Below are positions 2,003 to 17,933 of a DNA stretch of 31,398 nt, piece after piece. The notes beneath the pieces were generated by a model. The model worked only from the letters and a program-made list of their open reading frames with translations, did not search any database and was not told the origin of the DNA. A program made the translations under genes and the position numbers. Within the stretch, counting starts at the first letter, position 1. The number at the start of each line of letters is the position of its first letter. The DNA comes from an archaeon (GTDB lineage: Archaea; Iainarchaeota; Iainarchaeia; Iainarchaeales; JAAZKV01), in the NCBI GenBank assembly GCA_036170245.1, contig JAVHOV010000031.1, forward strand, positions 1-31,398, read 5' to 3'.

Positions 2003-3361
2003 TCATTTTTTCTTTTTCTTTCTTAACTTTGAGTAGTGTCGATCATAGAAATTCAATCCATCCCACTTCTCAAGAGCTTCTCTTAATTCAGAGTGAGTTT
2101 TTGCATACTCTTCAGCAGTGTACCCACTCATTTCTGCGTCAACAGCTTGACGCATTGCCATTGCACCCGCAACAGTTCCTTTAGGGTGACCATGAATTCC
2201 TCCACCAGCTTGGATTATTACATCTCTACCCATCCCATGAATTATTGGAGCAACTTTACTTGGGTGTAGTCCGCCTGAACAAACCGCAATCATTGGCTTT
2301 AAGTTATGCCATTCTTCTTTCAATCTATGAGTTGCTAGATTCTGTGAAACAACTTTATGTTCAATTTCTTCTCCAACAGCCATTACTTCTTCTTTACCTT
2401 CATACATTTTTCCAACCATTCCGCCAATGTGAAGCTGATCAATTCCAATAAGTCTACAAAGTTTTGCAATTACAAGCATGCTAATTCCATGATAAGGATT
2501 TCTAGTAAATGCAGCATGCATTGCTCTATGACCATGGTAAACAACATTCAAGTCAGCATCCCTTAACTCTTGAACTGCACTCCACCCAGCAGTCAATACA
2601 TCAACCATTACAAATTCTCCGCCTTGTGAAACAATATACTTTGCTCTTCGCATCATTTCGCCATAAGGTGCAGTGACATTTGCCAAATATGCTTTTCTTT
2701 CCCCAGTTTCTCTCTCAGCTTTAGCTCGAGCTCTTAAAGTAACATCAATTCTTTTATAAAAATTATTAAAACTCATTGAAGTTAAGTTCTCATCATCCTT
2801 AACATAATCACAGCCCCCAATCCAAGCCTGGTAAGCTACATCAGCATGACCTACTTCACCTAAACCCAGTTTTGGTTTAACAATTGTTCCAACAAAAGGT
2901 CTATCACTAACTTTCATTAATTTTCTGATTCCTTCAATTCCATAATAAGGACCCCTATAGTGCTTGATGAATGATTCAGGGAAATCAATATCCACTAATT
3001 TTAGGTTCTTTACATCATTCATTCCAAAAATATTTCCTGCAACTGAACTTAATATTTGAGGAATATTATGTTCTTCAAAAAGCTGTTTAGAATAAGCAAT
3101 TCTTACAATTCCTTTCTTTTTATCAACAAAAAATACTTTCGGAGACAAATCATTAAACATTTTCTGGTTAAGTGTTCCAATATCAGTCCAAGTACCAATT
3201 GAAGACTCAGAAGCAACTCTCTGCGCTGCACTCTCAAGAGTAATTCCCTTAGCAGGTTCTAAATAATACTCACAAACCAAATCCTCTTTAGTAGGTCTAT
3301 AATTCAAATCCAAATACCCTTCATACTCTTTTACCCTATTTGATACAACTTTTCCAGCCAT
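2003..3361 (-). CDS. rbcL: Form III RuBisCO large subunit
   Basis: ESSIGTWT, GTIVKPKLG, catalytic KDDE, HRAMHAAF, SGGLHP, QAGGGIHGHP. ATG 3361 is preferred over 3379 because a GTGGTG SD precedes it. Confidence 0.95.
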   Translation of the reverse strand: MAGKVVSNRVKEYEGYLDLNYRPTKEDLVCEYYLEPAKGITLESAAQRVASESSIGTWTDIGTLNQKMFNDLSPKVFFVDKKKGIVRIAYSKQLFEEHNIPQILSSVAGNIFGMNDVKNLKLVDIDFPESFIKHYRGPYYGIEGIRKLMKVSDRPFVGTIVKPKLGLGEVGHADVAYQAWIGGCDYVKDDENLTSMSFNNFYKRIDVTLRARAKAERETGERKAYLANVTAPYGEMMRRAKYIVSQGGEFVMVDVLTAGWSAVQELRDADLNVVYHGHRAMHAAFTRNPYHGISMLVIAKLCRLIGIDQLHIGGMVGKMYEGKEEVMAVGEEIEHKVVSQNLATHRLKEEWHNLKPMIAVCSGGLHPSKVAPIIHGMGRDVIIQAGGGIHGHPKGTVAGAMAMRQAVDAEMSGYTAEEYAKTHSELREALEKWDGLNFYDRHYSKLRKKKKK

Positions 3362-3537
3362 TTTTAGAACACCACACACTTAATTTTATGATTTGAAAAT
3401 GATTTTTGTAGAATAAAAACCTTTTCAAGGAGAGAAAAATTTTGTAATTTTAATTCAAAACAATCATTCTTTACTTTACCAAACAATTATATTCAACTTT
3501 ATTAGTAATTCATTCAAAAATCGGAGGGCGATGATTA

Positions 3538-9447: not shown

Positions 9448-9601
9448 GATGCTTAACAGGCATTTATATAATTAGTGCTGGTTTCTCTTAAATTTTTTAT
9501 TTAAAAAAATATTTAGCAACTAGCAAGTAAAAATTGGTGAGCAAAAGAATTCTTTTAATGAATTAAAATTGTTCACAAATAAAAGTGGAATCTATAGGGT
9601 G

Positions 9602-10510
9602 ATGAATTTGGTAACAAAATGTCCTGAATGCGGAAGCGAAAAGATTAGAGTAGACCACGGAAAAGGAGAAGCTGTCTGCATGAACTGCGGATTAATTGTA
9701 TCAGAAGATGAAATGATTGATACAGGAAAAGACTGGAGATCATTTGATGACGCTGAAGATGCTTCAAGAGGCGGAAGCCCAATGAAGTATGTTAAACTAA
9801 ACAAAGGTTTAGTAACAATGATTGATAGAAGAGGAACTGACTTGAGAGGAAACAAACTTTCTAGCAAAGGAAGAGCACAGATGTACCGTTTAATTAAATG
9901 GCACAAAAGAGCTAGTGTTTCAAGTTCAATGCAAAGAAATTTATCAATTGCACTAACTGAAATGAGAAGAGTAGCATCCTACTTGAATATCCCTGACACT
10001 TTAGTAGAAGCAGCAGCTTTACTATACAGAAAGACTGTTAAGAAAGGATTAATCAGAGGAAGATTAATCGAAGCAGTTGTTGCAGCAGTACTTTACACAG
10101 TATGCAGAACATACCATGTGCCAAGAACTCTAAACGAAATGGCAGAAGCAAGCGGATTGACTAAGAAAGAAATTGGAAGAACTTACCGTTTCTTAGTAAG
10201 AGAACTGAATTTAGGTGTTCCACTAACTAACCCAATCCACTACATTCCAAGATTTGCTTCAGAATTAAACTTGAGCGGAGAAGTTCAAGAAGAAGGAAGA
10301 AGAATCTTAGAAGAAGCAATCAAGAAAGGATTAATCTCAGGAAGAGGACCAACTGGAGTAGCAGCAGCAGCTGTTTACATAGCTGGACTTTTGAAGGGAG
10401 AAAGAAGAACACAAAAAGAAGTTGCAAACGTTGCCGGAGTTACAGAAGTAACTATCCGAAACAGATACAGAGAATTGAAGAAGAGACTATCAATCAATGT
10501 AGCAGCTTAA
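9602..10510 (+). CDS. tfb: Transcription initiation factor IIB (TFB), full length
   Basis: Zn ribbon CPECG...CMNCG, DWRSF B-reader, two cyclin repeats, C-terminal [10 protein letters not shown]. Start uncertain (9569 TTG, 9602 ATG or 9608 TTG). Confidence 0.95.
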   Translation: MNLVTKCPECGSEKIRVDHGKGEAVCMNCGLIVSEDEMIDTGKDWRSFDDAEDASRGGSPMKYVKLNKGLVTMIDRRGTDLRGNKLSSKGRAQMYRLIKWHKRASVSSSMQRNLSIALTEMRRVASYLNIPDTLVEAAALLYRKTVKKGLIRGRLIEAVVAAVLYTVCRTYHVPRTLNEMAEASGLTKKEIGRTYRFLVRELNLGVPLTNPIHYIPRFASELNLSGEVQEEGRRILEEAIKKGLISGRGPTGVAAAAVYIAGLLKGERRTQKEVANVAGVTEVTIRNRYRELKKRLSINVAA

Positions 10511-10525
10511 TTAGACAAATAATTA
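9812..10525 (+). repeat. 714-bp direct repeat, copy 1 (3' part of tfb plus 15 nt)
   Basis: GTAACAATG...TTAGACAAATAATTA appears identical to 13460-14173 (offset 3648). Confidence 0.92.
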
Positions 10526-10528
10526 ATA

Positions 10529-10566
10529 GATGTAGGGGAAATTCCCTTACATCACTTCTATTTTTA
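10529..10566 (+). terminator. Hairpin plus T-tract after tfb copy 1
   Basis: GATGTAGGGGA-AAT-TCCCTTACATC, then TTCTATTTTTT. Confidence 0.65.
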
Positions 10567-10608
10567 AAAAAATAAGATATATTAAATTTAATTTGTTGAA
10601 AGAACAAA

Positions 10609-12027
10609 TTATTTCTCAGTACCATTGCCACTTGCATAAATTTCATTAATTTCACTCTGACTTAAGGCTTTATCATAAATTCTAAAATCATCAAAACTTG
10701 CATCCTGATTTTGAGATCCCCCGACGTAACCCAAATACATAGTTCTACCACTAACATCCAAAACAGCAGAACTTGTAATATTAGAATCCCCAACAACACC
10801 ATTAGCATAAACTTTCCAAGTACTACCATCTTTAACAAAAACTAAATGATACCAAGTTCCCCCACTATCAAGACCCAAATAATTCCCAAATTCTCCACCA
10901 GTAGTACCAAATTTAATCTGATAATTATCACAATTCCAATAACTGTAAATAGCATAATTATCAAAACTAAATAAAGCAGAATGATTAGACCCATTACTGG
11001 GTCTCCACCACATAGCAATACTCCAACTATTAGTACCCCCAAAAGTATCAATTATAGCAGTAGCATCAATATGATTGCCCACACTAATATTTAATGCATT
11101 ATTGATTTTACCACTTACTGAAAGAGTATTACTGTTAGCACTTAAAACAGCATTTTTATTATTCCCGCTAGAATCTAAAACAATAGTGTTACTAGCGTTA
11201 TCATTCGATTTATAATGTGCGATAAGCCCTGTAGGCATTGCAGTTAGCACTCTAAATTCCCCACTTGTACCTTTATTATTTGAAGAATCAACACAATTTA
11301 CATCCCATGTATGAGATCCCAAACTAATACCAGAATACACAATAGTATAAACAACTAACGGACTCATCGAATAGTCAATATTCTTATCAGGATGAGCAAC
11401 TTCATCAAGCACTAAATAACAATAACTTACATCAGAATCAGATATTGAAAAATTAAAATCAACAGATGACTCAGAAATCGACCCATCAGCACCAGGCGAT
11501 GATAAAGTAATCGAAGGAGAAATAACATCAGAAGCAACATCAGAAGCAACCTCTTCAACTGCAACTTTTGCCGGGGTCACAACATTAGTGCAATCAAGCG
11601 AAATATTTCCAAAATCAGCAGTTTTAGTCAAACTACTAGCACTAAAATACTCAACCTTAACAGAATAATTCCTCCTCTCACCATCACAAGCAACAACACC
11701 ATGCAACTTAAAACTTTTTTCTTCCCCAGCAACTAATTGGACAGAAAAATTATGATCCACTCCATCAACAACAATCTTACTCAAAGTCAAATTCTCAACA
11801 TTAATATTCTTCAAAACCAACAAACCATTAGCATCCATGCCCATAACAGAAGAACCCAAACTCAAACCATTAACACCAATTTTATTCGCAATTTCAGAAG
11901 AAGCAATACTAACTTGAGAACTATTACCAACCTGAGTAATCAACAACCCAACAACAATCAAAGCAATAACAACAACAACAGAAATAATAACCAAGTATTC
12001 CACAGTACCCTGACCACGATTAAACAT
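10609..12027 (-). CDS. Class III signal peptide protein with Ig-like domain and C-terminal LamG/concanavalin-like domain (allele 1)
   Basis: RGQG/TVEYL plus hydrophobic helix; WDVNCVD; WYHLVFV...DDFRIYDKALS. ATG 12027 aligns with the paralog start, with a TATA 24 nt upstream. Confidence 0.85.
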   Translation of the reverse strand: MFNRGQGTVEYLVIISVVVVIALIVVGLLITQVGNSSQVSIASSEIANKIGVNGLSLGSSVMGMDANGLLVLKNINVENLTLSKIVVDGVDHNFSVQLVAGEEKSFKLHGVVACDGERRNYSVKVEYFSASSLTKTADFGNISLDCTNVVTPAKVAVEEVASDVASDVISPSITLSSPGADGSISESSVDFNFSISDSDVSYCYLVLDEVAHPDKNIDYSMSPLVVYTIVYSGISLGSHTWDVNCVDSSNNKGTSGEFRVLTAMPTGLIAHYKSNDNASNTIVLDSSGNNKNAVLSANSNTLSVSGKINNALNISVGNHIDATAIIDTFGGTNSWSIAMWWRPSNGSNHSALFSFDNYAIYSYWNCDNYQIKFGTTGGEFGNYLGLDSGGTWYHLVFVKDGSTWKVYANGVVGDSNITSSAVLDVSGRTMYLGYVGGSQNQDASFDDFRIYDKALSQSEINEIYASGNGTEK

Positions 12028-12095
12028 AGACAAGAATAACAAAGTTCAACTATAAAAACCTAACTTTCACAAAGGCTTTGGGACAAAACTCCTTT

Positions 12096-13082
12096 TTATG
12101 TGGGTTGCAGTATTGTTGCGATGTAGTTGTGTAGGGTCATTCTGGTTTCCATTGCTGTGATAATTCTGCATTTCTTTTTTTGGCGTATTACGCCAAAACG
12201 TCGTTTATCTGCGGAGTGGTTGTATTCGCTGGTTTCTCTTTTATAAAAATGTTTAAGGTAATCCAGTGTGTTGGTTGTGAATTTTTGGATTGATTGTTTC
12301 CATTTTTTGCATCCTTGAATTGTTGCATTCTTTTTTGGAAGAAAATACACTGTTGTGTTTTTGTTAAATCCTGCAATTGTTTTTTGATTTGAATAATATT
12401 TGTCGAGTGTTAATGAGTTGAGTGTGAATCCTCTTTTTTCTAACCAACATTTTGCTTGTTCAAACAATTTCATTTCGGATTGGAATCCTGTCGCAAAACT
12501 CACGTAGAGTTTTGTTTTTAAATCAATAATGGTTGATGTGATAATGTATTCTTTTCGTTCAACTTCTTCCCAATGTTCTTTATTTTCTTCTTTGTCTGTT
12601 CGATAATGTTTTGTGATTGTGAGAGAATATCCTGTTCCATCTGATGATGCATCAATTTCTCGTGGGGTACCACAACTTAAGACGTACAAATTGTGCAAAA
12701 TCATCCCTACAAGTTGATCTTCATATGCGCGTTCGATTGTTTTGTAACTAAATGTTTCATTACCCGTTAGCGCAAACATTAATGAAAAAGATTCCATGTC
12801 TCGATTTGTTAAATCGAGGATTTGCTGAATCAAATGCAATTTTGTCAATAAAATTCTGTCTTTCATTGGTCTGCCAATGAGTTGTTTGATTTCAATTAAA
12901 GCTGCGGCTTTGTCCACATCGACATTAATTTTTTCAAACAAATCTCGTTTGAGATTTCTCAACCGTTTATCGTACTCTTTATCAAAACCAGGTTTTTGAA
13001 CAGCAAATTCTTTCTTATACACTTTTTTTATGTACTCAAGTTCATCAAGAGTTTTCTGCAAATGCTTGTTCCTTAATTGCAT
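12096..13082 (-). CDS. DDE transposase
   Basis: SYKTIER, DGTGY, LDKYY, RETSE...KRRFG, LHN; lies between the TIRs. Confidence 0.9.
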   Translation of the reverse strand: MQLRNKHLQKTLDELEYIKKVYKKEFAVQKPGFDKEYDKRLRNLKRDLFEKINVDVDKAAALIEIKQLIGRPMKDRILLTKLHLIQQILDLTNRDMESFSLMFALTGNETFSYKTIERAYEDQLVGMILHNLYVLSCGTPREIDASSDGTGYSLTITKHYRTDKEENKEHWEEVERKEYIITSTIIDLKTKLYVSFATGFQSEMKLFEQAKCWLEKRGFTLNSLTLDKYYSNQKTIAGFNKNTTVYFLPKKNATIQGCKKWKQSIQKFTTNTLDYLKHFYKRETSEYNHSADKRRFGVIRQKKKCRIITAMETRMTLHNYIATILQPT

Positions 13083-13111
13083 AAAATAATAACAACTAAC
13101 CCATTTATAAT

Positions 13112-13131
13112 AATATGTATTAATACATATT
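13112..13131. promoter_or_regulatory. Perfect 20-bp palindrome between the divergent IS genes
   Basis: AATATGTATTAATACATATT, adjacent to TTTATAA at 13104-13110. Confidence 0.6.
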
Positions 13132-13136
13132 GATAT

Positions 13137-13310
13137 ATGCGTAAAGTAGAAATCAAAAAAGGAAATCTAACACTCCACGACAGCGAAGTAATTTGCTTTC
13201 TGGAAAAAACAATAACGCCTTACGGAACCGGCGCAAAAGTTGACGCACTAAAAGAATACCTTGGCTACCCCGCATACCTTATAATATGCAAGAAAAAAAG
13301 CAAAAAATAG
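13137..13310 (+). CDS. DUF2080-like transposon-associated small protein (57 aa), absent from the ORF track
   Basis: MRKVEIKKGNLTLHDSEVICFLEKTITPYGTGAKVDALKEYLGYPAYLIICKKKSKK; the TPYGTGAKVD..KEYLG..AYLII pattern resembles DUF2080. Confidence 0.8.
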   Translation: MRKVEIKKGNLTLHDSEVICFLEKTITPYGTGAKVDALKEYLGYPAYLIICKKKSKK

Positions 13311-13378
13311 ACCTTTTATATACTTTTGTCCCAGAGTCTTTCACAAAAAAAAAACGGTTTTCTCAAAAGAAAAAGTAA

Positions 13379-13459
13379 TTATTTCAATTTTTTTATTTTC
13401 TTTAACCCAAGTTCATCTTTCTTCACTTTTCTTTCAAGCTTTTTTAAATCTTGTTCAGG
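13379..13459 (-). pseudogene. 3' remnant of a gene, DinD-like C-terminus, truncated at the repeat junction
   Basis: [26 protein letters not shown] resembles the DinD tail (PxEDxKKLERxVK) as recalled, and abuts position 13460. Confidence 0.55.
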
Positions 13460-14158
13460 GTAACAATGATTGATAGAAGAGGAACTGACTTGAGAGGAAA
13501 CAAACTTTCTAGCAAAGGAAGAGCACAGATGTACCGTTTAATTAAATGGCACAAAAGAGCTAGTGTTTCAAGTTCAATGCAAAGAAATTTATCAATTGCA
13601 CTAACTGAAATGAGAAGAGTAGCATCCTACTTGAATATCCCTGACACTTTAGTAGAAGCAGCAGCTTTACTATACAGAAAGACTGTTAAGAAAGGATTAA
13701 TCAGAGGAAGATTAATCGAAGCAGTTGTTGCAGCAGTACTTTACACAGTATGCAGAACATACCATGTGCCAAGAACTCTAAACGAAATGGCAGAAGCAAG
13801 CGGATTGACTAAGAAAGAAATTGGAAGAACTTACCGTTTCTTAGTAAGAGAACTGAATTTAGGTGTTCCACTAACTAACCCAATCCACTACATTCCAAGA
13901 TTTGCTTCAGAATTAAACTTGAGCGGAGAAGTTCAAGAAGAAGGAAGAAGAATCTTAGAAGAAGCAATCAAGAAAGGATTAATCTCAGGAAGAGGACCAA
14001 CTGGAGTAGCAGCAGCAGCTGTTTACATAGCTGGACTTTTGAAGGGAGAAAGAAGAACACAAAAAGAAGTTGCAAACGTTGCCGGAGTTACAGAAGTAAC
14101 TATCCGAAACAGATACAGAGAATTGAAGAAGAGACTATCAATCAATGTAGCAGCTTAA
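13460..14158 (+). pseudogene. tfb: 5'-truncated duplicate of tfb (no Zn ribbon or B-reader)
   Basis: Protein identical to TFB from VTMIDRRG to the end; the upstream sequence is unrelated. Confidence 0.85.
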
Positions 14159-14173
14159 TTAGACAAATAATTA
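13460..14173 (+). repeat. 714-bp direct repeat, copy 2
   Basis: Matches 9812-10525. Confidence 0.92.
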
Positions 14174-14175
14174 GC

Positions 14176-14218
14176 AATGTTAAGGGAAAAATTTCCCTTA
14201 GCATTTTTCTATTTTTTT
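14176..14218 (+). terminator. Hairpin plus T-tract after tfb copy 2
   Basis: AATGTTAAGGGAA-AAAT-TTCCCTTAGCATT, then TTTCTATTTTTTT. Confidence 0.65.
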
Positions 14219-14253
14219 AAAAATAAAATAATTTGATTAAATTAAATAAAAAA

Positions 14254-15651
14254 TTACTCAGCTTCAGTACCATTGTCTGAATTGTAAATCAACAGAACTT
14301 CATTTTCAGTCAACGCTTTGTCATAAATACGAACATCATCAAGTGAACCATAAAATGCTTCATTGATAGTATCATTTCCAATATAAGAAGGACTCCATGA
14401 AGGAAGACCAGAAGATTGAGACCCACCAGATACCCCATCAACATACCAAGTCCCTGTGCCTCCACTAACAGATAACACAAGATGATGCCAACTATTTGCA
14501 CTCATCACAGGAGATTGACCGTTATCTCCGACATTATAAAAAGTAGCTTGATAGTCACACGCAGAACCCCACGCATACCCTGTGATGAAAAATAATCCAA
14601 CATCACTATAATACGTCATCAAGCCCCCATAATACTGCGCTACTTCACTAGGATTGACCCACATTGAAACAGAATAAGTATCAGATAGCGAAATATTACT
14701 CGTGTTAATTGCCCTAGTACCATCAAAATATAAAGCAGAGTTTACTTTACCACTTACATTCATATCAATCGTATTTGTTGAAGCTACTCCATTATTGGAA
14801 GCAACATTATCCAGAACAACTGTTGAACTCTCATTATCATTCATAAAATAATGGGCAACTAAATTATTCCCCCCAATCAACTTAATAGTAAGACTTTGTA
14901 TAATAGAGGTATTAGTATCACCACTGTCATCAGTGCAAGATATATTCCAATCATAACTACCAACACTTAAAGTATATTCTAAAGTATTTTCCACTCCTTC
15001 ACTAATATTTGAAGAAGAATTAGCATCCATTAAATCACTCAAATTCAAACTACAACTACTAACAGGCCCATCAGAATCACTTGGAGTAAAAACAAAAGAA
15101 ACTCGAGTCTCAGTAGTAGAATAATCATCAGCAGGAGAACTCAACTCAACACTAGGTGCAACATTACTAAAAACTTCTTCAACAGCAACTCCTGCAGGAG
15201 TTACAACACTAGCACAATCCAAAGAAACATTTCCAAAATCAGCAACCTTAGTTAAACCACTAGCACTAACATACTCAACCTTAACAGAATAATTCTTTTT
15301 CTCTCCATCACAAACTGCAATATCCTGCAACTTAAAACTCTTCTCACCACCACTAACCAACTGCTCACCAAAATTATGATCAACCCCATCAATAATAATT
15401 TTACTTAAAGTCAAATTCTCAGAATTTAAATTCTTAATAACCAACAAACCATTACCATCAACACCCGCAACCGAAGAACCCAAACTAATACCACCAACCC
15501 CAATTTTAGTTCCAATTTCTGAAGAAGTACCACTAACATCAGAACTATTATCAACTTGAGTAATAACCAACCCAACAACAATTAAAGACAAAACAATAAC
15601 AACAGAAATAATTACTAAATACTCAACAGTACCCTGACCACGACTAAACAT
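14254..15651 (-). CDS. Class III signal peptide protein with Ig-like and LamG domains (allele 2)
   Basis: RGQG/TVEYL; WNISCTD; WHHLVLS...LDDVRIYDKALT. The N-terminal ~160 aa are clearly homologous to allele 1. Confidence 0.85.
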   Translation of the reverse strand: MFSRGQGTVEYLVIISVVIVLSLIVVGLVITQVDNSSDVSGTSSEIGTKIGVGGISLGSSVAGVDGNGLLVIKNLNSENLTLSKIIIDGVDHNFGEQLVSGGEKSFKLQDIAVCDGEKKNYSVKVEYVSASGLTKVADFGNVSLDCASVVTPAGVAVEEVFSNVAPSVELSSPADDYSTTETRVSFVFTPSDSDGPVSSCSLNLSDLMDANSSSNISEGVENTLEYTLSVGSYDWNISCTDDSGDTNTSIIQSLTIKLIGGNNLVAHYFMNDNESSTVVLDNVASNNGVASTNTIDMNVSGKVNSALYFDGTRAINTSNISLSDTYSVSMWVNPSEVAQYYGGLMTYYSDVGLFFITGYAWGSACDYQATFYNVGDNGQSPVMSANSWHHLVLSVSGGTGTWYVDGVSGGSQSSGLPSWSPSYIGNDTINEAFYGSLDDVRIYDKALTENEVLLIYNSDNGTEAE

Positions 15652-15732: not shown

Positions 15733-16728
15733 TTACTCAATTATTTTTTCTTTAATTGCTTGACCAAAATGTCTGCCCGCTTCCCCTAACTTTACCAAAA
15801 TCTTATCTCCATTCTTAAGTTCAGCAACAGAAATTGATTTTCCACCATTTGTAACAACTCTAATCGTTTCAGCGTTTTGCAAAATCACTGCACCAATTTG
15901 TTCACCTACTTTTGCTTCAATTAAAACAAGCGGACGATTCTCAATTTTGTTTCTCCCAACAATTACTTTCTTTGTTTCTCCTTTAGAATTCACACAAAGG
16001 GCTTCGTCCCCAGAATTTAATTCAAGCAAGTACTTTGTCTTTCCTTCAGGCAAAAGAACATAAGAATGAATTGAACCCGCATTTACTCTAAATGGACGAG
16101 TTGCACAATACTCTACTTCCATTGATTCAGATTGAACCAAGAAAAGCATTTTTGGAGAATTACCTATTAGCATTCCTTCCCCAAGTCCCATTAAGTTACA
16201 AGTATCAACACAAGCTCTTTCTCCGGAACCCAATATTTTAATATTTGTAACAATTGCTTCCACTAAATCAATTTTACTTCCTGATTTATTCATTTCTTTT
16301 ACAGCATCAATTATTTCCTGACGGTTCTTTGGTTTTACTACAACTCCCCTCACTCCTTTCTCAAGCACAGTTAACATTGTCGGAATCTCACTAACACTAC
16401 ACGAAACCAAAATATTATCTGATTTTGATACAAGGTTCTCTAAAGGAATTATTTTCCAATCATTTGTATGAATCAATACAAGAGATTTCTTTGAATCAGC
16501 CAAAGCTTTATCTTCATCTGATTTTGATTTAATTTCATGCTCAATCAAATCTTTACCCAAAATAAGATCTCCATCAAGAGCAATAGTTTCAATTCGCCCT
16601 AATTTATGAACTGATTCACTCATTTTGTTTGGAACAATTATTTTCTTCACCCCTGATTCAATTGCACTTGTAACTAATTCCTTATCAAAATCCCTTAAAT
16701 CAATTATCAATTCTTTTTCTTGTACCAT
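15733..16728 (-). CDS. aroB': 3-dehydroquinate synthase II (archaeal AroB')
   Basis: WKIIPLENL, GERACVDTC, RPFRVNAG, ILQNAETIR, GRHFG. Confidence 0.92.
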   Translation of the reverse strand: MVQEKELIIDLRDFDKELVTSAIESGVKKIIVPNKMSESVHKLGRIETIALDGDLILGKDLIEHEIKSKSDEDKALADSKKSLVLIHTNDWKIIPLENLVSKSDNILVSCSVSEIPTMLTVLEKGVRGVVVKPKNRQEIIDAVKEMNKSGSKIDLVEAIVTNIKILGSGERACVDTCNLMGLGEGMLIGNSPKMLFLVQSESMEVEYCATRPFRVNAGSIHSYVLLPEGKTKYLLELNSGDEALCVNSKGETKKVIVGRNKIENRPLVLIEAKVGEQIGAVILQNAETIRVVTNGGKSISVAELKNGDKILVKLGEAGRHFGQAIKEKIIE

Positions 16729-16757: not shown

Positions 16758-17594
16758 TTAATGAAAACTCTTTTGAGGAGAAATTGGGATTACAATTTCA
16801 TCTTTCAAACCAACTTTACTAATTGCATCATTAACAGAATAACCTTTGTTAACAATTAAAGAAACTGCGTGAATCATTTTCTTTGGCTCCTTATGTTGGA
16901 AAGCATTTCTTCCTAATGCAACTCCTCCAGCACCTGCATCCATTGCATCCTTAATCATCTGCAAAACTTCCTTATCGGTTCCTTTGCACCCGCCAGCAAT
17001 TATCACTGGAACTGGGCATCCTTCAACAACTTCTCTAAAAGATTCTTTTGAACCAGTATAATTAGTTTTTACAATATCTGCCCCAAGTTCTGCACCAATT
17101 CTTGCAGCAAGTTTTACAACACTGACATCTTTTTCATTCTTTACCTTTTCTCCACGAGGATACATCATCATCAAAAGAGGCATCCCTAATCTTTTACAAT
17201 CTCTTGCAACTTCACCAGCTTCAACCATCATTCTTCCAGTATCAGTTGCCCCAACATTAATGTGAATAGAAATAGCATCAGCTCCAAGAGCAACAGCTTC
17301 CTCAACTGTAGTTACAATTACTTTATTCAATGGATCAGGCGAAAGCATTGTCCCTGCACTTAAGTGAACAATTAACCCAATATCACTTCCACCCCCGCGG
17401 AAACCTGCCTGCACCATTCCTTTGTGCATCAAAATTCCATTAGCCCCAGATTCAGCAATCATTGAAACAGTTTCTTTTACATTAATCAATCCTTCAATTG
17501 GACCATCACTAATACCATGATCAATCGGAATTATTACCATTTTTCCAGAAGTTCTGTCCATAATTCTTTGCATCCTAATCATTTTCCCTATCAT
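16758..17594 (-). CDS. aroA': 2-amino-3,7-dideoxy-D-threo-hept-6-ulosonate synthase (AroA', DhnA-type class I aldolase)
   Basis: IPIDHG, HKG, IVHLSA, MMYPRG, ELGADIVKTNY, GRNAFQ; adjacent to aroB'. ATG 17594 with GGGTGG SD. Confidence 0.88.
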   Translation of the reverse strand: MIGKMIRMQRIMDRTSGKMVIIPIDHGISDGPIEGLINVKETVSMIAESGANGILMHKGMVQAGFRGGGSDIGLIVHLSAGTMLSPDPLNKVIVTTVEEAVALGADAISIHINVGATDTGRMMVEAGEVARDCKRLGMPLLMMMYPRGEKVKNEKDVSVVKLAARIGAELGADIVKTNYTGSKESFREVVEGCPVPVIIAGGCKGTDKEVLQMIKDAMDAGAGGVALGRNAFQHKEPKKMIHAVSLIVNKGYSVNDAISKVGLKDEIVIPISPQKSFH

Positions 17595-17627
17595 CAAAAC
17601 CACCCAAGTTTTTTAATTTTCTTTTGG

Positions 17628-17711
17628 CAAAGCAAAACAAAACCAGAAAGCAGATTTATTATAAAAAAAATTTATAGAAATCGGACCCTGGTTTTTAATT
17701 TACCCAGAGTC
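17628..17711 (-). promoter_or_regulatory. Putative attenuator RNA with alternative hairpins
   Basis: GACUCUGG (17704-17711) pairs with CCAGGGUC (17684-17691). Alternatively AAAACCAGGG (17686-17695) pairs with UUCUGGUUUU (17639-17648). U8 at 17663-17670 and a U-rich tail follow. Confidence 0.55.
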
Positions 17712-17791
17712 TATTCAAAATAGAAATACCAAAAGTTAGAATTAACTACACTTATTTGCTGAACAGCATTTTGTATAGTTAAATCACACAT
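17711..17791 (-). CDS. Putative aro leader peptide MCDLTIQNAVQQISVVNSNFWYFYFE (26 aa), absent from the ORF track
   Basis: ATG at 17791, TAG at 17711-17713, six consecutive aromatic codons TTT TGG TAT TTC TAT TTT, directly upstream of aroA'. Confidence 0.75.
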   Translation of the reverse strand: MCDLTIQNAVQQISVVNSNFWYFYFE

Positions 17792-17814
17792 TACAATAAA
17801 CACTGCACTGGACC

Positions 17815-17822
17815 TTTATAAA
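17815..17822 (-). promoter_or_regulatory. TATA box of the leader-aroA'-aroB' transcript
   Basis: TTTATAAA ending 24 nt before the leader ATG, the same spacing as the leaderless LamG genes. Confidence 0.65.
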
Positions 17823-17933
17823 CTCTAACAAAATTTAAGTGTAACTATTTATACACATTAATTAAACCACACCAACCAGTAAAATTCGCCTTAAACACCC
17901 ATGTTTATAATCTTTTTTGTTTTACATATAATC

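Follow-up and report, generated by a model that had tools for sequence, protein, structure and literature searches.

The window, that is, the whole analysed stretch of 31,398 nucleotides, carries on its minus strand the genes aroA' and aroB', which encode an ADH synthase and a 3-dehydroquinate synthase II, respectively. Both exceed their NCBIfam cut-offs (TIGR01949, 342 bits against a cut-off of 299; NF002627, 407 against 392), which confirms the gene names given in the original prediction. The nearest named relative (aroA' 94% identical) is Candidatus Iainarchaeum sp., and Iainarchaeum is presumably a member of DPANN. Upstream of aroA', a TATA box is followed after a gap of 23 nt by an ATG at 17791 (minus strand), which opens a short ORF without any aromatic residue in positions 1-19, then with the run FWYFYF and a final Glu. 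The aroA' ATG lies at 17594, and the leader stop is 116 nt upstream of it. This layout had been proposed before with distances of 24 and 117 nt; the layout stands, while the distances are 23 and 116 nt. The features of the locus are as follows.

17840..17855, minus strand: 16-nt palindrome of the TGTA-N8-TACA type, a candidate operator (7 invariant columns in the 19-leader alignment)
17822-17815, minus strand: TATA box TTTATAAA (read from the sequence)
17711..17791, minus strand: leader ORF of 26 codons, presumably leaderless, with its TAG stop at 17713-17711
17739..17785, minus strand: 5' hairpin H0 within the variable N-terminal codons, a possible pause or folding insulator (folding and cognate/swapped-arm test)
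17717..17734, minus strand: aromatic codon run, F20-W21-Y22-F23-Y24-F25, also segment 1 (codon counts across leaders)
17704..17716, minus strand: segment 2, the 5' arm of helix 2:3, which covers the last codon, the stop and the 7 nt that follow
17677..17695, minus strand: segment 3 (core 17684-17691), partner of segment 2 or segment 4
17663..17670, minus strand: U8 tract lying in the 3:4 arm and adjoining the extended 2:3 helix on its 3' side; a second candidate for the termination signal
17643..17651, minus strand: segment 4, 3' arm of helix 3:4 (cognate versus swapped test)
17634..17642, minus strand: U-rich tail behind helix 3:4; candidate termination site
17621..17627, minus strand: segment 5 (CCAAAAG), partner of the UUUGG opening the aromatic run in ribosome-free RNA (folding and 1:5 test)
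16758..17594, minus strand: aroA', with its own Shine-Dalgarno-like GGGTGG at 17605-17600 (TIGR01949)
15733..16728, minus strand: aroB' (NF002627)

Elsewhere in the window, positions 9569-15651 appear to be a tandem duplication, with a gene at 9569-10510, an identical but 5'-truncated copy at 13451-14158 and an ORF at 12096-13082 between them. The two copies, which we take to be TFB-like, each adjoin what is presumably a pilin-signal LamG-type gene, and the ORF between them is presumably transposase-like; a weak TafC hit was also obtained among these genes. As well, a gene at 2003-3379 is assumed to encode a RuBisCO-like large subunit.

By itself, the aromatic run is not decisive against chance. 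Aromatic codons make up 14% in the AT-rich intergenic DNA, and the genome has nine six-codon aromatic runs in its 219,536 intergenic codon positions (six frames). With at least six aromatic residues in seven, the leader stands alone among 1,906 intergenic ATG ORFs located upstream of a same-strand gene, and no further copies of it were found within the genome. The spacing between TATA box and ATG of long ORFs genome-wide gives 39 hits at 21-24 nt among 393 genes, with at most five at any other position, and this peak supports a leaderless start of the leader. Position, TATA spacing and the Trp codon had been raised as arguments against chance. The TATA spacing falls on the genome-wide peak. 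The Trp codon turned out to be weak evidence, because most of the family has a Gly codon in its place (with the UUUGG letters retained) and only 11 of the 23 distinct leaders have Trp among their last ten codons. It is conservation that carries the case.

The gene aroA' is held by 12 of the 38 family genomes searched, and the leader precedes it in all 12. Within the phylum, 16 of 215 genomes match aroA' at E 1e-60, among them four genomes of a second Iainarchaeota family, in which a TATA-led leader, whose terminal aromatic run includes Trp, is present at four of four aroA'-aroB' loci. The search of aroA' orthologues in related genomes, named in the original prediction as a check, thus showed the leader ORF to be conserved. 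No leader was seen at the second aroA' paralogue (L069) of one second-family genome or at the mid-operon aroA' copy (L012) of a third family. Among 21 metagenome aroA' loci, 11 possess the full leader and one (L083) an aromatic run truncated at the contig edge, while three are mid-operon and four are distant homologues; the leader is absent from L076 and L077, which have a 68%-identical aroA' with upstream intergenic DNA present. L083 is an aroA'-aroB' locus whose aromatic run and hairpin (L083:1-145) are cut by the contig edge, and it groups with the second family in a quick tree; through it, the leader may extend to further archaeal lineages.

After removal of duplicates and near-duplicates (L017-L024, L030, L070-L072, L086), 23 distinct leaders were retained, including 19 of the family type and four of the second family. 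In all 23, a TATA match precedes the ATG by 21-27 nt, and this ATG is invariant at the leaderless position in the alignment. The ORF lengths take eight values between 21 and 44 codons, and the TATA-defined ATG is always in frame with the run, which by simple arithmetic assuming seven independent length changes would happen by chance at about 5e-4. The spacer from leader stop to aroA' ranges from 83 to 227 nt. Aromatic codons occupy 139 of 184 sites in the last eight positions against 61 of 397 elsewhere, substitutions within the run are Phe/Tyr/Trp swaps or synonymous at the third position, and the other reading frames over the run have no aromatic enrichment. The last eight codons divide into 71 Phe, 59 Tyr and 9 Trp, so the device reads as a Phe/Tyr sensor in which Trp is optional. 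Sensing of all three end products, as first suggested, is therefore compatible with this genome and with the 11 leaders containing Trp, whereas the rest are mainly Phe/Tyr.

The leader RNA folds better than its shuffles (z -3.6), and helix 2:3 is present in all 19 family leaders (z -2.2 to -6.3). In the alignment of this helix, 84% of cells pair and 12 cells are changed on both sides, a count that none of 500 shuffles attained, and slid controls were all lower in double-sided changes; counted by pairs, four of eight show a double-sided change, which was reached by 46 of 500 shuffles. Cognate arms were compared with swapped arms by permutation in 15 dereplicated leaders of the 19, the kinship of which inflates the p values, and cognate arms were superior for helix 2:3 (13 of 15, p 1e-4), helix 3:4 (14 of 15, p 5e-5) and hairpin H0 (14 of 15, p 5e-5), with p 0.001 for pairing 1:5. 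Three control pairings gave no cognate advantage in the 15 leaders (p 0.15-0.92), and no partner specificity was found there for the 1:2 and 4:5 pairings (p 0.94 and 0.38, respectively). The 1:2 helix appears in the MFE fold, yet it is weak, and hairpin H0 may replace it as the pause or protector helix. RNAalifold on a MAFFT alignment recovered only five pairs of helix 2:3, plus the DNA palindrome, owing to poor alignment there and to the two competing helices.

Folding with a ribosome footprint placed on this leader gave helix 2:3 at 0.9 with the A-site on F20, W21, Y22 or F23, and helix 3:4 at 0.8 from Y24 to the stop. With the ribosome at the stop, the probability of 3:4 is at least 0.5 in 18 of 19 family leaders, and an upstream stall brings 2:3 to at least 0.5 at some position in 16 of 19; the in-silico switch fails in three of the 19 (L074, L004 and L011). 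Ribosome-free RNA is split, with 3:4 favoured in nine leaders and 2:3 in ten. Of the 19 family leaders, 13 have a run of at least four U behind helix 3:4 (+55 to +76) and 15 have one behind helix 2:3 (+38 to +46). In the second family there is just one hairpin, which begins at the stop and holds a U5-U9 run, and the exposure of this run with the ribosome at the stop rises in only one of four. A scan of the locus for bacterial promoters and terminators gave nothing above shuffles and no terminator sites, and at 10 loci Rfam returned neither an amino-acid leader family up to E 1 nor a T-box or aptamer. Helix 3:4 is long and imperfect, which differs from the short GC hairpin plus U run of a bacterial-type intrinsic terminator. 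Occlusion of the aroA' Shine-Dalgarno was also tried and rejected, as no consistent switch was found over the 23 leaders. The leader is a real, conserved and structurally supported element.

Based on its sequence and on the modelled folds, the leader is probably a ribosome-stalling transcription attenuator of aroA'-aroB'. Translation would start leaderless at the leader ATG, and a shortage of charged tRNA-Phe or tRNA-Tyr, and in this genome of tRNA-Trp too, would stall the ribosome. With the ribosome stalled at one of the first four aromatic codons, segment 2 is predicted to stay free for helix 2:3, while a ribosome that has reached the last codons or the stop would cover segment 2 and let helix 3:4 form ahead of the U-rich tail. 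We infer the sign of the switch, with 2:3 as the read-through state and 3:4 plus its U-tract as the terminating state; a bacterial-style reading of the U-run behind 2:3 in 15 of 19 leaders would reverse it. Common to both families is a helix starting from the stop codon, which a terminating ribosome would melt and a stall at least three codons earlier would leave free. The core of the earlier reading as a stalling sensor is thereby supported by conservation, frame-kept lengths, covarying helices, and the cognate trp and his leaders described below.

Release would follow the archaeal U-tract/aCPSF1(FttA) route instead of a bacterial intrinsic terminator, and aCPSF1/FttA is encoded in the genome. 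According to the accessible part of one study, archaeal terminators are U-tracts read with aCPSF1, for which a strict hairpin is not needed (PMC8716108). The accessible part of another describes FttA as threading about 36 nt of nascent RNA, and treats steric competition (exclusion) between ribosome and FttA as still a hypothesis (PMC11616081).

The leader peptide itself is probably irrelevant, because the RNA hairpin in its N-terminal part is retained although the residues there vary, and because the final Glu codon lies within segment 2. Sensing of Glu by this last codon was considered and rejected: the codon forms part of segment 2, and L064, L080 and three of four second-family leaders have lost it but keep the helix.

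An alternative that we consider unlikely is a +1 slip at a hungry codon in the U-rich run, by which the ribosome would pass the stop and melt 3:4 or keep aCPSF1 off. Re-pairing in the +1 frame would be possible where UUU precedes a hungry codon, a +1 shift at a Trp codon appears to be needed in 14 of 20 trpB2 loci of the same phylum, and the +1 frame is open for at least 13 nt past the stop in 17 of 19 family leaders (where it ends before segment 4) and three of four second-family leaders. However, a single conserved paired segment accounts for this open frame, which is not independent evidence, and the covariation of helix 2:3 is explained by stalling alone. Moreover, no frame reaches aroA', since the +1 frame stops at +4 to +73 and aroA' starts at +86 to +230, in frame 0, +1 and +2 in 8, 5 and 10 of 23 leaders, respectively, and a Shine-Dalgarno-like word near the run is missing in 19 of 23.

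The helices could also act post-transcriptionally, by gating the initiation of aroA' translation or mRNA cleavage or decay instead of termination. The variation of the spacer to aroA' from 83 to 227 nt argues against such gating, as does the accessibility of the aroA' Shine-Dalgarno in the stalled state, which is more than 0.2 higher in four of 23 leaders, lower in three (this locus included) and unchanged in the rest; we regard it as quite improbable, even though there is no canonical terminator and segment 5, located past the U tail and present only in read-through RNA, pairs specifically with the run start (p 0.001, inflated by kinship). A structured 5' UTR sensing a protein or ligand, in which a U-rich stretch merely happens to read as Phe/Tyr and the ORF is non-functional, would suit the AT-rich intergenic DNA with its 14% aromatic codons and nine six-codon runs in the genome, and several letters of the run do pair as well (segments 1:2 and 1:5). 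Such a UTR is nevertheless very unlikely given the invariant leaderless ATG, the eight lengths kept in frame and the synonymous third-position changes. In addition, the second-family leader has the same ORF design although the family profile misses it, and no Rfam match was obtained.

The palindrome upstream of the TATA box has eight intergenic matches in the genome, with a TATA match 17-18 nt downstream at aroA' and trpB2 only. Its sites include 17840-17855, G000:C23:5274, C4:11009 and C13:1051. It possibly stands before another ORF, presumably peptidase-E-like, and at C13, where a relic of the trp-leader motif is present without a gene behind it. An Lrp/AsnC gene was also noted near pheA on contig C39.

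In the same genome, the trpB2-trpS operon (contig C23) likewise has a short ORF of its own, which is TATA-led and contains a single Trp codon. Across the phylum, not counting two matches without upstream DNA, a short one-Trp ORF is located 200-630 nt upstream of trpB2 in 18 of 20 loci, with a TATA match to the pattern applied in nine; this promoter-proximal ORF lies at G000:C23:5328-5384 and at 17 other trpB2 loci. The Shine-Dalgarno-led start of trpB2 is in frame in six of the 20 loci and out of frame in 14, where it joins TrpB2 only by a +1 shift (G000:C23:5600-5680 (L046), L047, L048, L050, L054, L093, L094, L096-L100, L102 and L103). The shift sites are CUU-UGG in ten and GCC-UGG in four (this genome included), located behind a second Shine-Dalgarno-like run 3-4 nt upstream, and several of the 14 loci also have an in-frame ATG nearby. 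The trpB2 start is a candidate Trp-starvation frameshift. At L095, the same cassette precedes a different ORF, which we take to be ParB-like.

In the family trp leader, the letters around the Trp codon are complementary to a segment farther downstream that has the same sequence as the tRNA-Trp anticodon arm and is followed by a long pyrimidine-rich spacer. A tRNA-Trp(CCA) gene is situated between the trp leader and trpB2 in three of eight family loci, and this genome (L046:1331-1403) and two others have a degenerate tRNA-like element there, called Lys or unknown by ARAGORN (loci L046, L047, L048, L050, L052 and L054).

One-His TATA-led short ORFs were found in eight of 20 extended his regions and at one more locus, in or before the his clusters of several families (L216, L217, L219, L221, L223, L224, L230, L232 and L137). 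A look at 30 ilvD loci and at 20 extended regions, some of them cut by contig ends, gave no convincing Ile/Leu/Val leader. Likewise, no aromatic leaders were seen at the downstream aroC/aroE/aroA/tyrA/pheA clusters of three relatives, in which aroC is named from Pfam and the genes that we take to be aroE, aroA, tyrA and pheA from their N-termini. Neither aroC nor EPSP synthase was found in this genome, which is 86% complete; aroC was found in three of five relatives, and a prephenate dehydratase gene is located at a contig end in this genome. With a single Trp before trpB2 and a single His in the his regions, the putative cognate codons track the pathway. The search of other amino-acid operons, also proposed as a check, gave short ORFs with a single cognate codon for trpB2 and his but none for Ile, Leu and Val. 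We tentatively propose, as a possibility, that Iainarchaeota have a wider sensing layer, composed of a Phe/Tyr/Trp stalling attenuator at aroA'-aroB' gating aCPSF1/FttA, of leaders with one Trp or one His codon at the trp and his clusters, and of a +1 frameshift on Trp starvation making TrpB2.

As we know, archaea couple transcription with translation. The leader forms a 200-nt cassette whose promoter is of the standard archaeal kind, whose helices are defined and come with compensatory variants from nature, and whose input is clear, and these make the ribosome/FttA question directly testable in a model archaeon. It would also mean that a DPANN lineage with small genomes regulates biosynthesis by its end products, and it points to a class of unannotated short ORFs.

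Archaeal control of the aromatic pathway is known from TrpY of the Methanothermobacter trp operon, a DNA-binding repressor acting with palindromic TGTACA-like boxes near the TATA box, and a Trp codon has been suggested as a charged-tRNA sensor in that system. To our knowledge, TrpY control involves no leader ORF with alternative helices. In the autoregulatory +1 frameshift of prfB, a Shine-Dalgarno-like run is followed after 3-4 nt by CUU and a slow codon. The trpB2 start site matches this arrangement, whereas the aroA' leader has neither the cassette nor a frame link to aroA'; a prfB-type cassette there was rejected, with no internal Shine-Dalgarno in 19 of 23 leaders and no frame continuous with aroA'. 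In the literature searched, with subscription papers mostly outside its scope, no archaeal leader-peptide attenuator was found, and none appears in the accessible parts of PMC2965389, PMC13158618, PMC13675443, PMC13681488, PMC9371683, PMC4833913, PMC3082878, PMC11616081, PMC8716108, PMC8116511, PMC12482152 and PMC7261190, the last of which, as far as accessible, describes conserved archaeal uORFs without attenuator function.

In the class Desulfobacteria, aroA' is present in 49 of 81 genomes, and a leader with Phe, Tyr and Trp codons was found at 29 of the best-scoring 31 loci (L104, L106-L131, L133 and L134), the two misses being paralogues without aroB'. These leaders resemble the archaeal one in their target genes aroA'-aroB', their mixed F/Y/W run and their distance to aroA', but differ in that a bacterial leader precedes the ORF, several conserved codons follow the run, and there are strong GC hairpins with U tails. 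The archaeal leader profile matched neither the Desulfobacteria leaders nor the second archaeal family, and 11 other bacterial aroA' loci (Armatimonadota, Planctomycetota and unassigned) have no leader. The quick aroA' tree places the three aroA' groups apart, without nesting of the archaeal clades in Desulfobacteria. Transfer of gene and leader from Desulfobacteria was therefore not supported. Lopatovskaya et al. 2010, cited in PMC4833913, may describe the deltaproteobacterial leaders. No description of the Desulfobacteria aroA'-aroB' leaders was found in the literature searched, as far as it was accessible, and the accessible part of PMC3082878 gives only a possible pheL in Desulfobacterium autotrophicum.

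Mycobacterial polycysteine short ORFs are said to work through a different downstream mechanism. The accessible part of the study presents these leaderless ORFs as amino-acid-responsive attenuators (bioRxiv 10.1101/834739). They share with our leader a leaderless short ORF with a cognate codon run, and differ in being bacterial and in reading cysteine.

The trpL/hisL/thrL class has the same short-ORF attenuator design as pheL. According to the accessible part of PMC3082878, E. coli pheL-pheA likewise has a short ORF before a biosynthetic operon, a cognate codon run near the stop, overlapping alternative helices 2:3 and 3:4 and a U-rich tail, and its geometry matches a helix that starts from the stop and is melted by the terminating ribosome. 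Unlike pheL, the archaeal leader has a TATA promoter, a presumably leaderless start, a run that mixes Phe and Tyr (and Trp) codons, one more 5' hairpin within its coding part and a weak, non-specific 1:2 helix; its 3:4 helix is long and imperfect and gives no bacterial terminator call, it has no Rfam leader match, and it would operate with archaeal RNA polymerase and aCPSF1. The leader is thus predicted to work like a bacterial leader-peptide attenuator, yet with a 3:4 helix outside the definition of an intrinsic terminator, and it likely represents for archaea a type of control that is familiar from bacteria.
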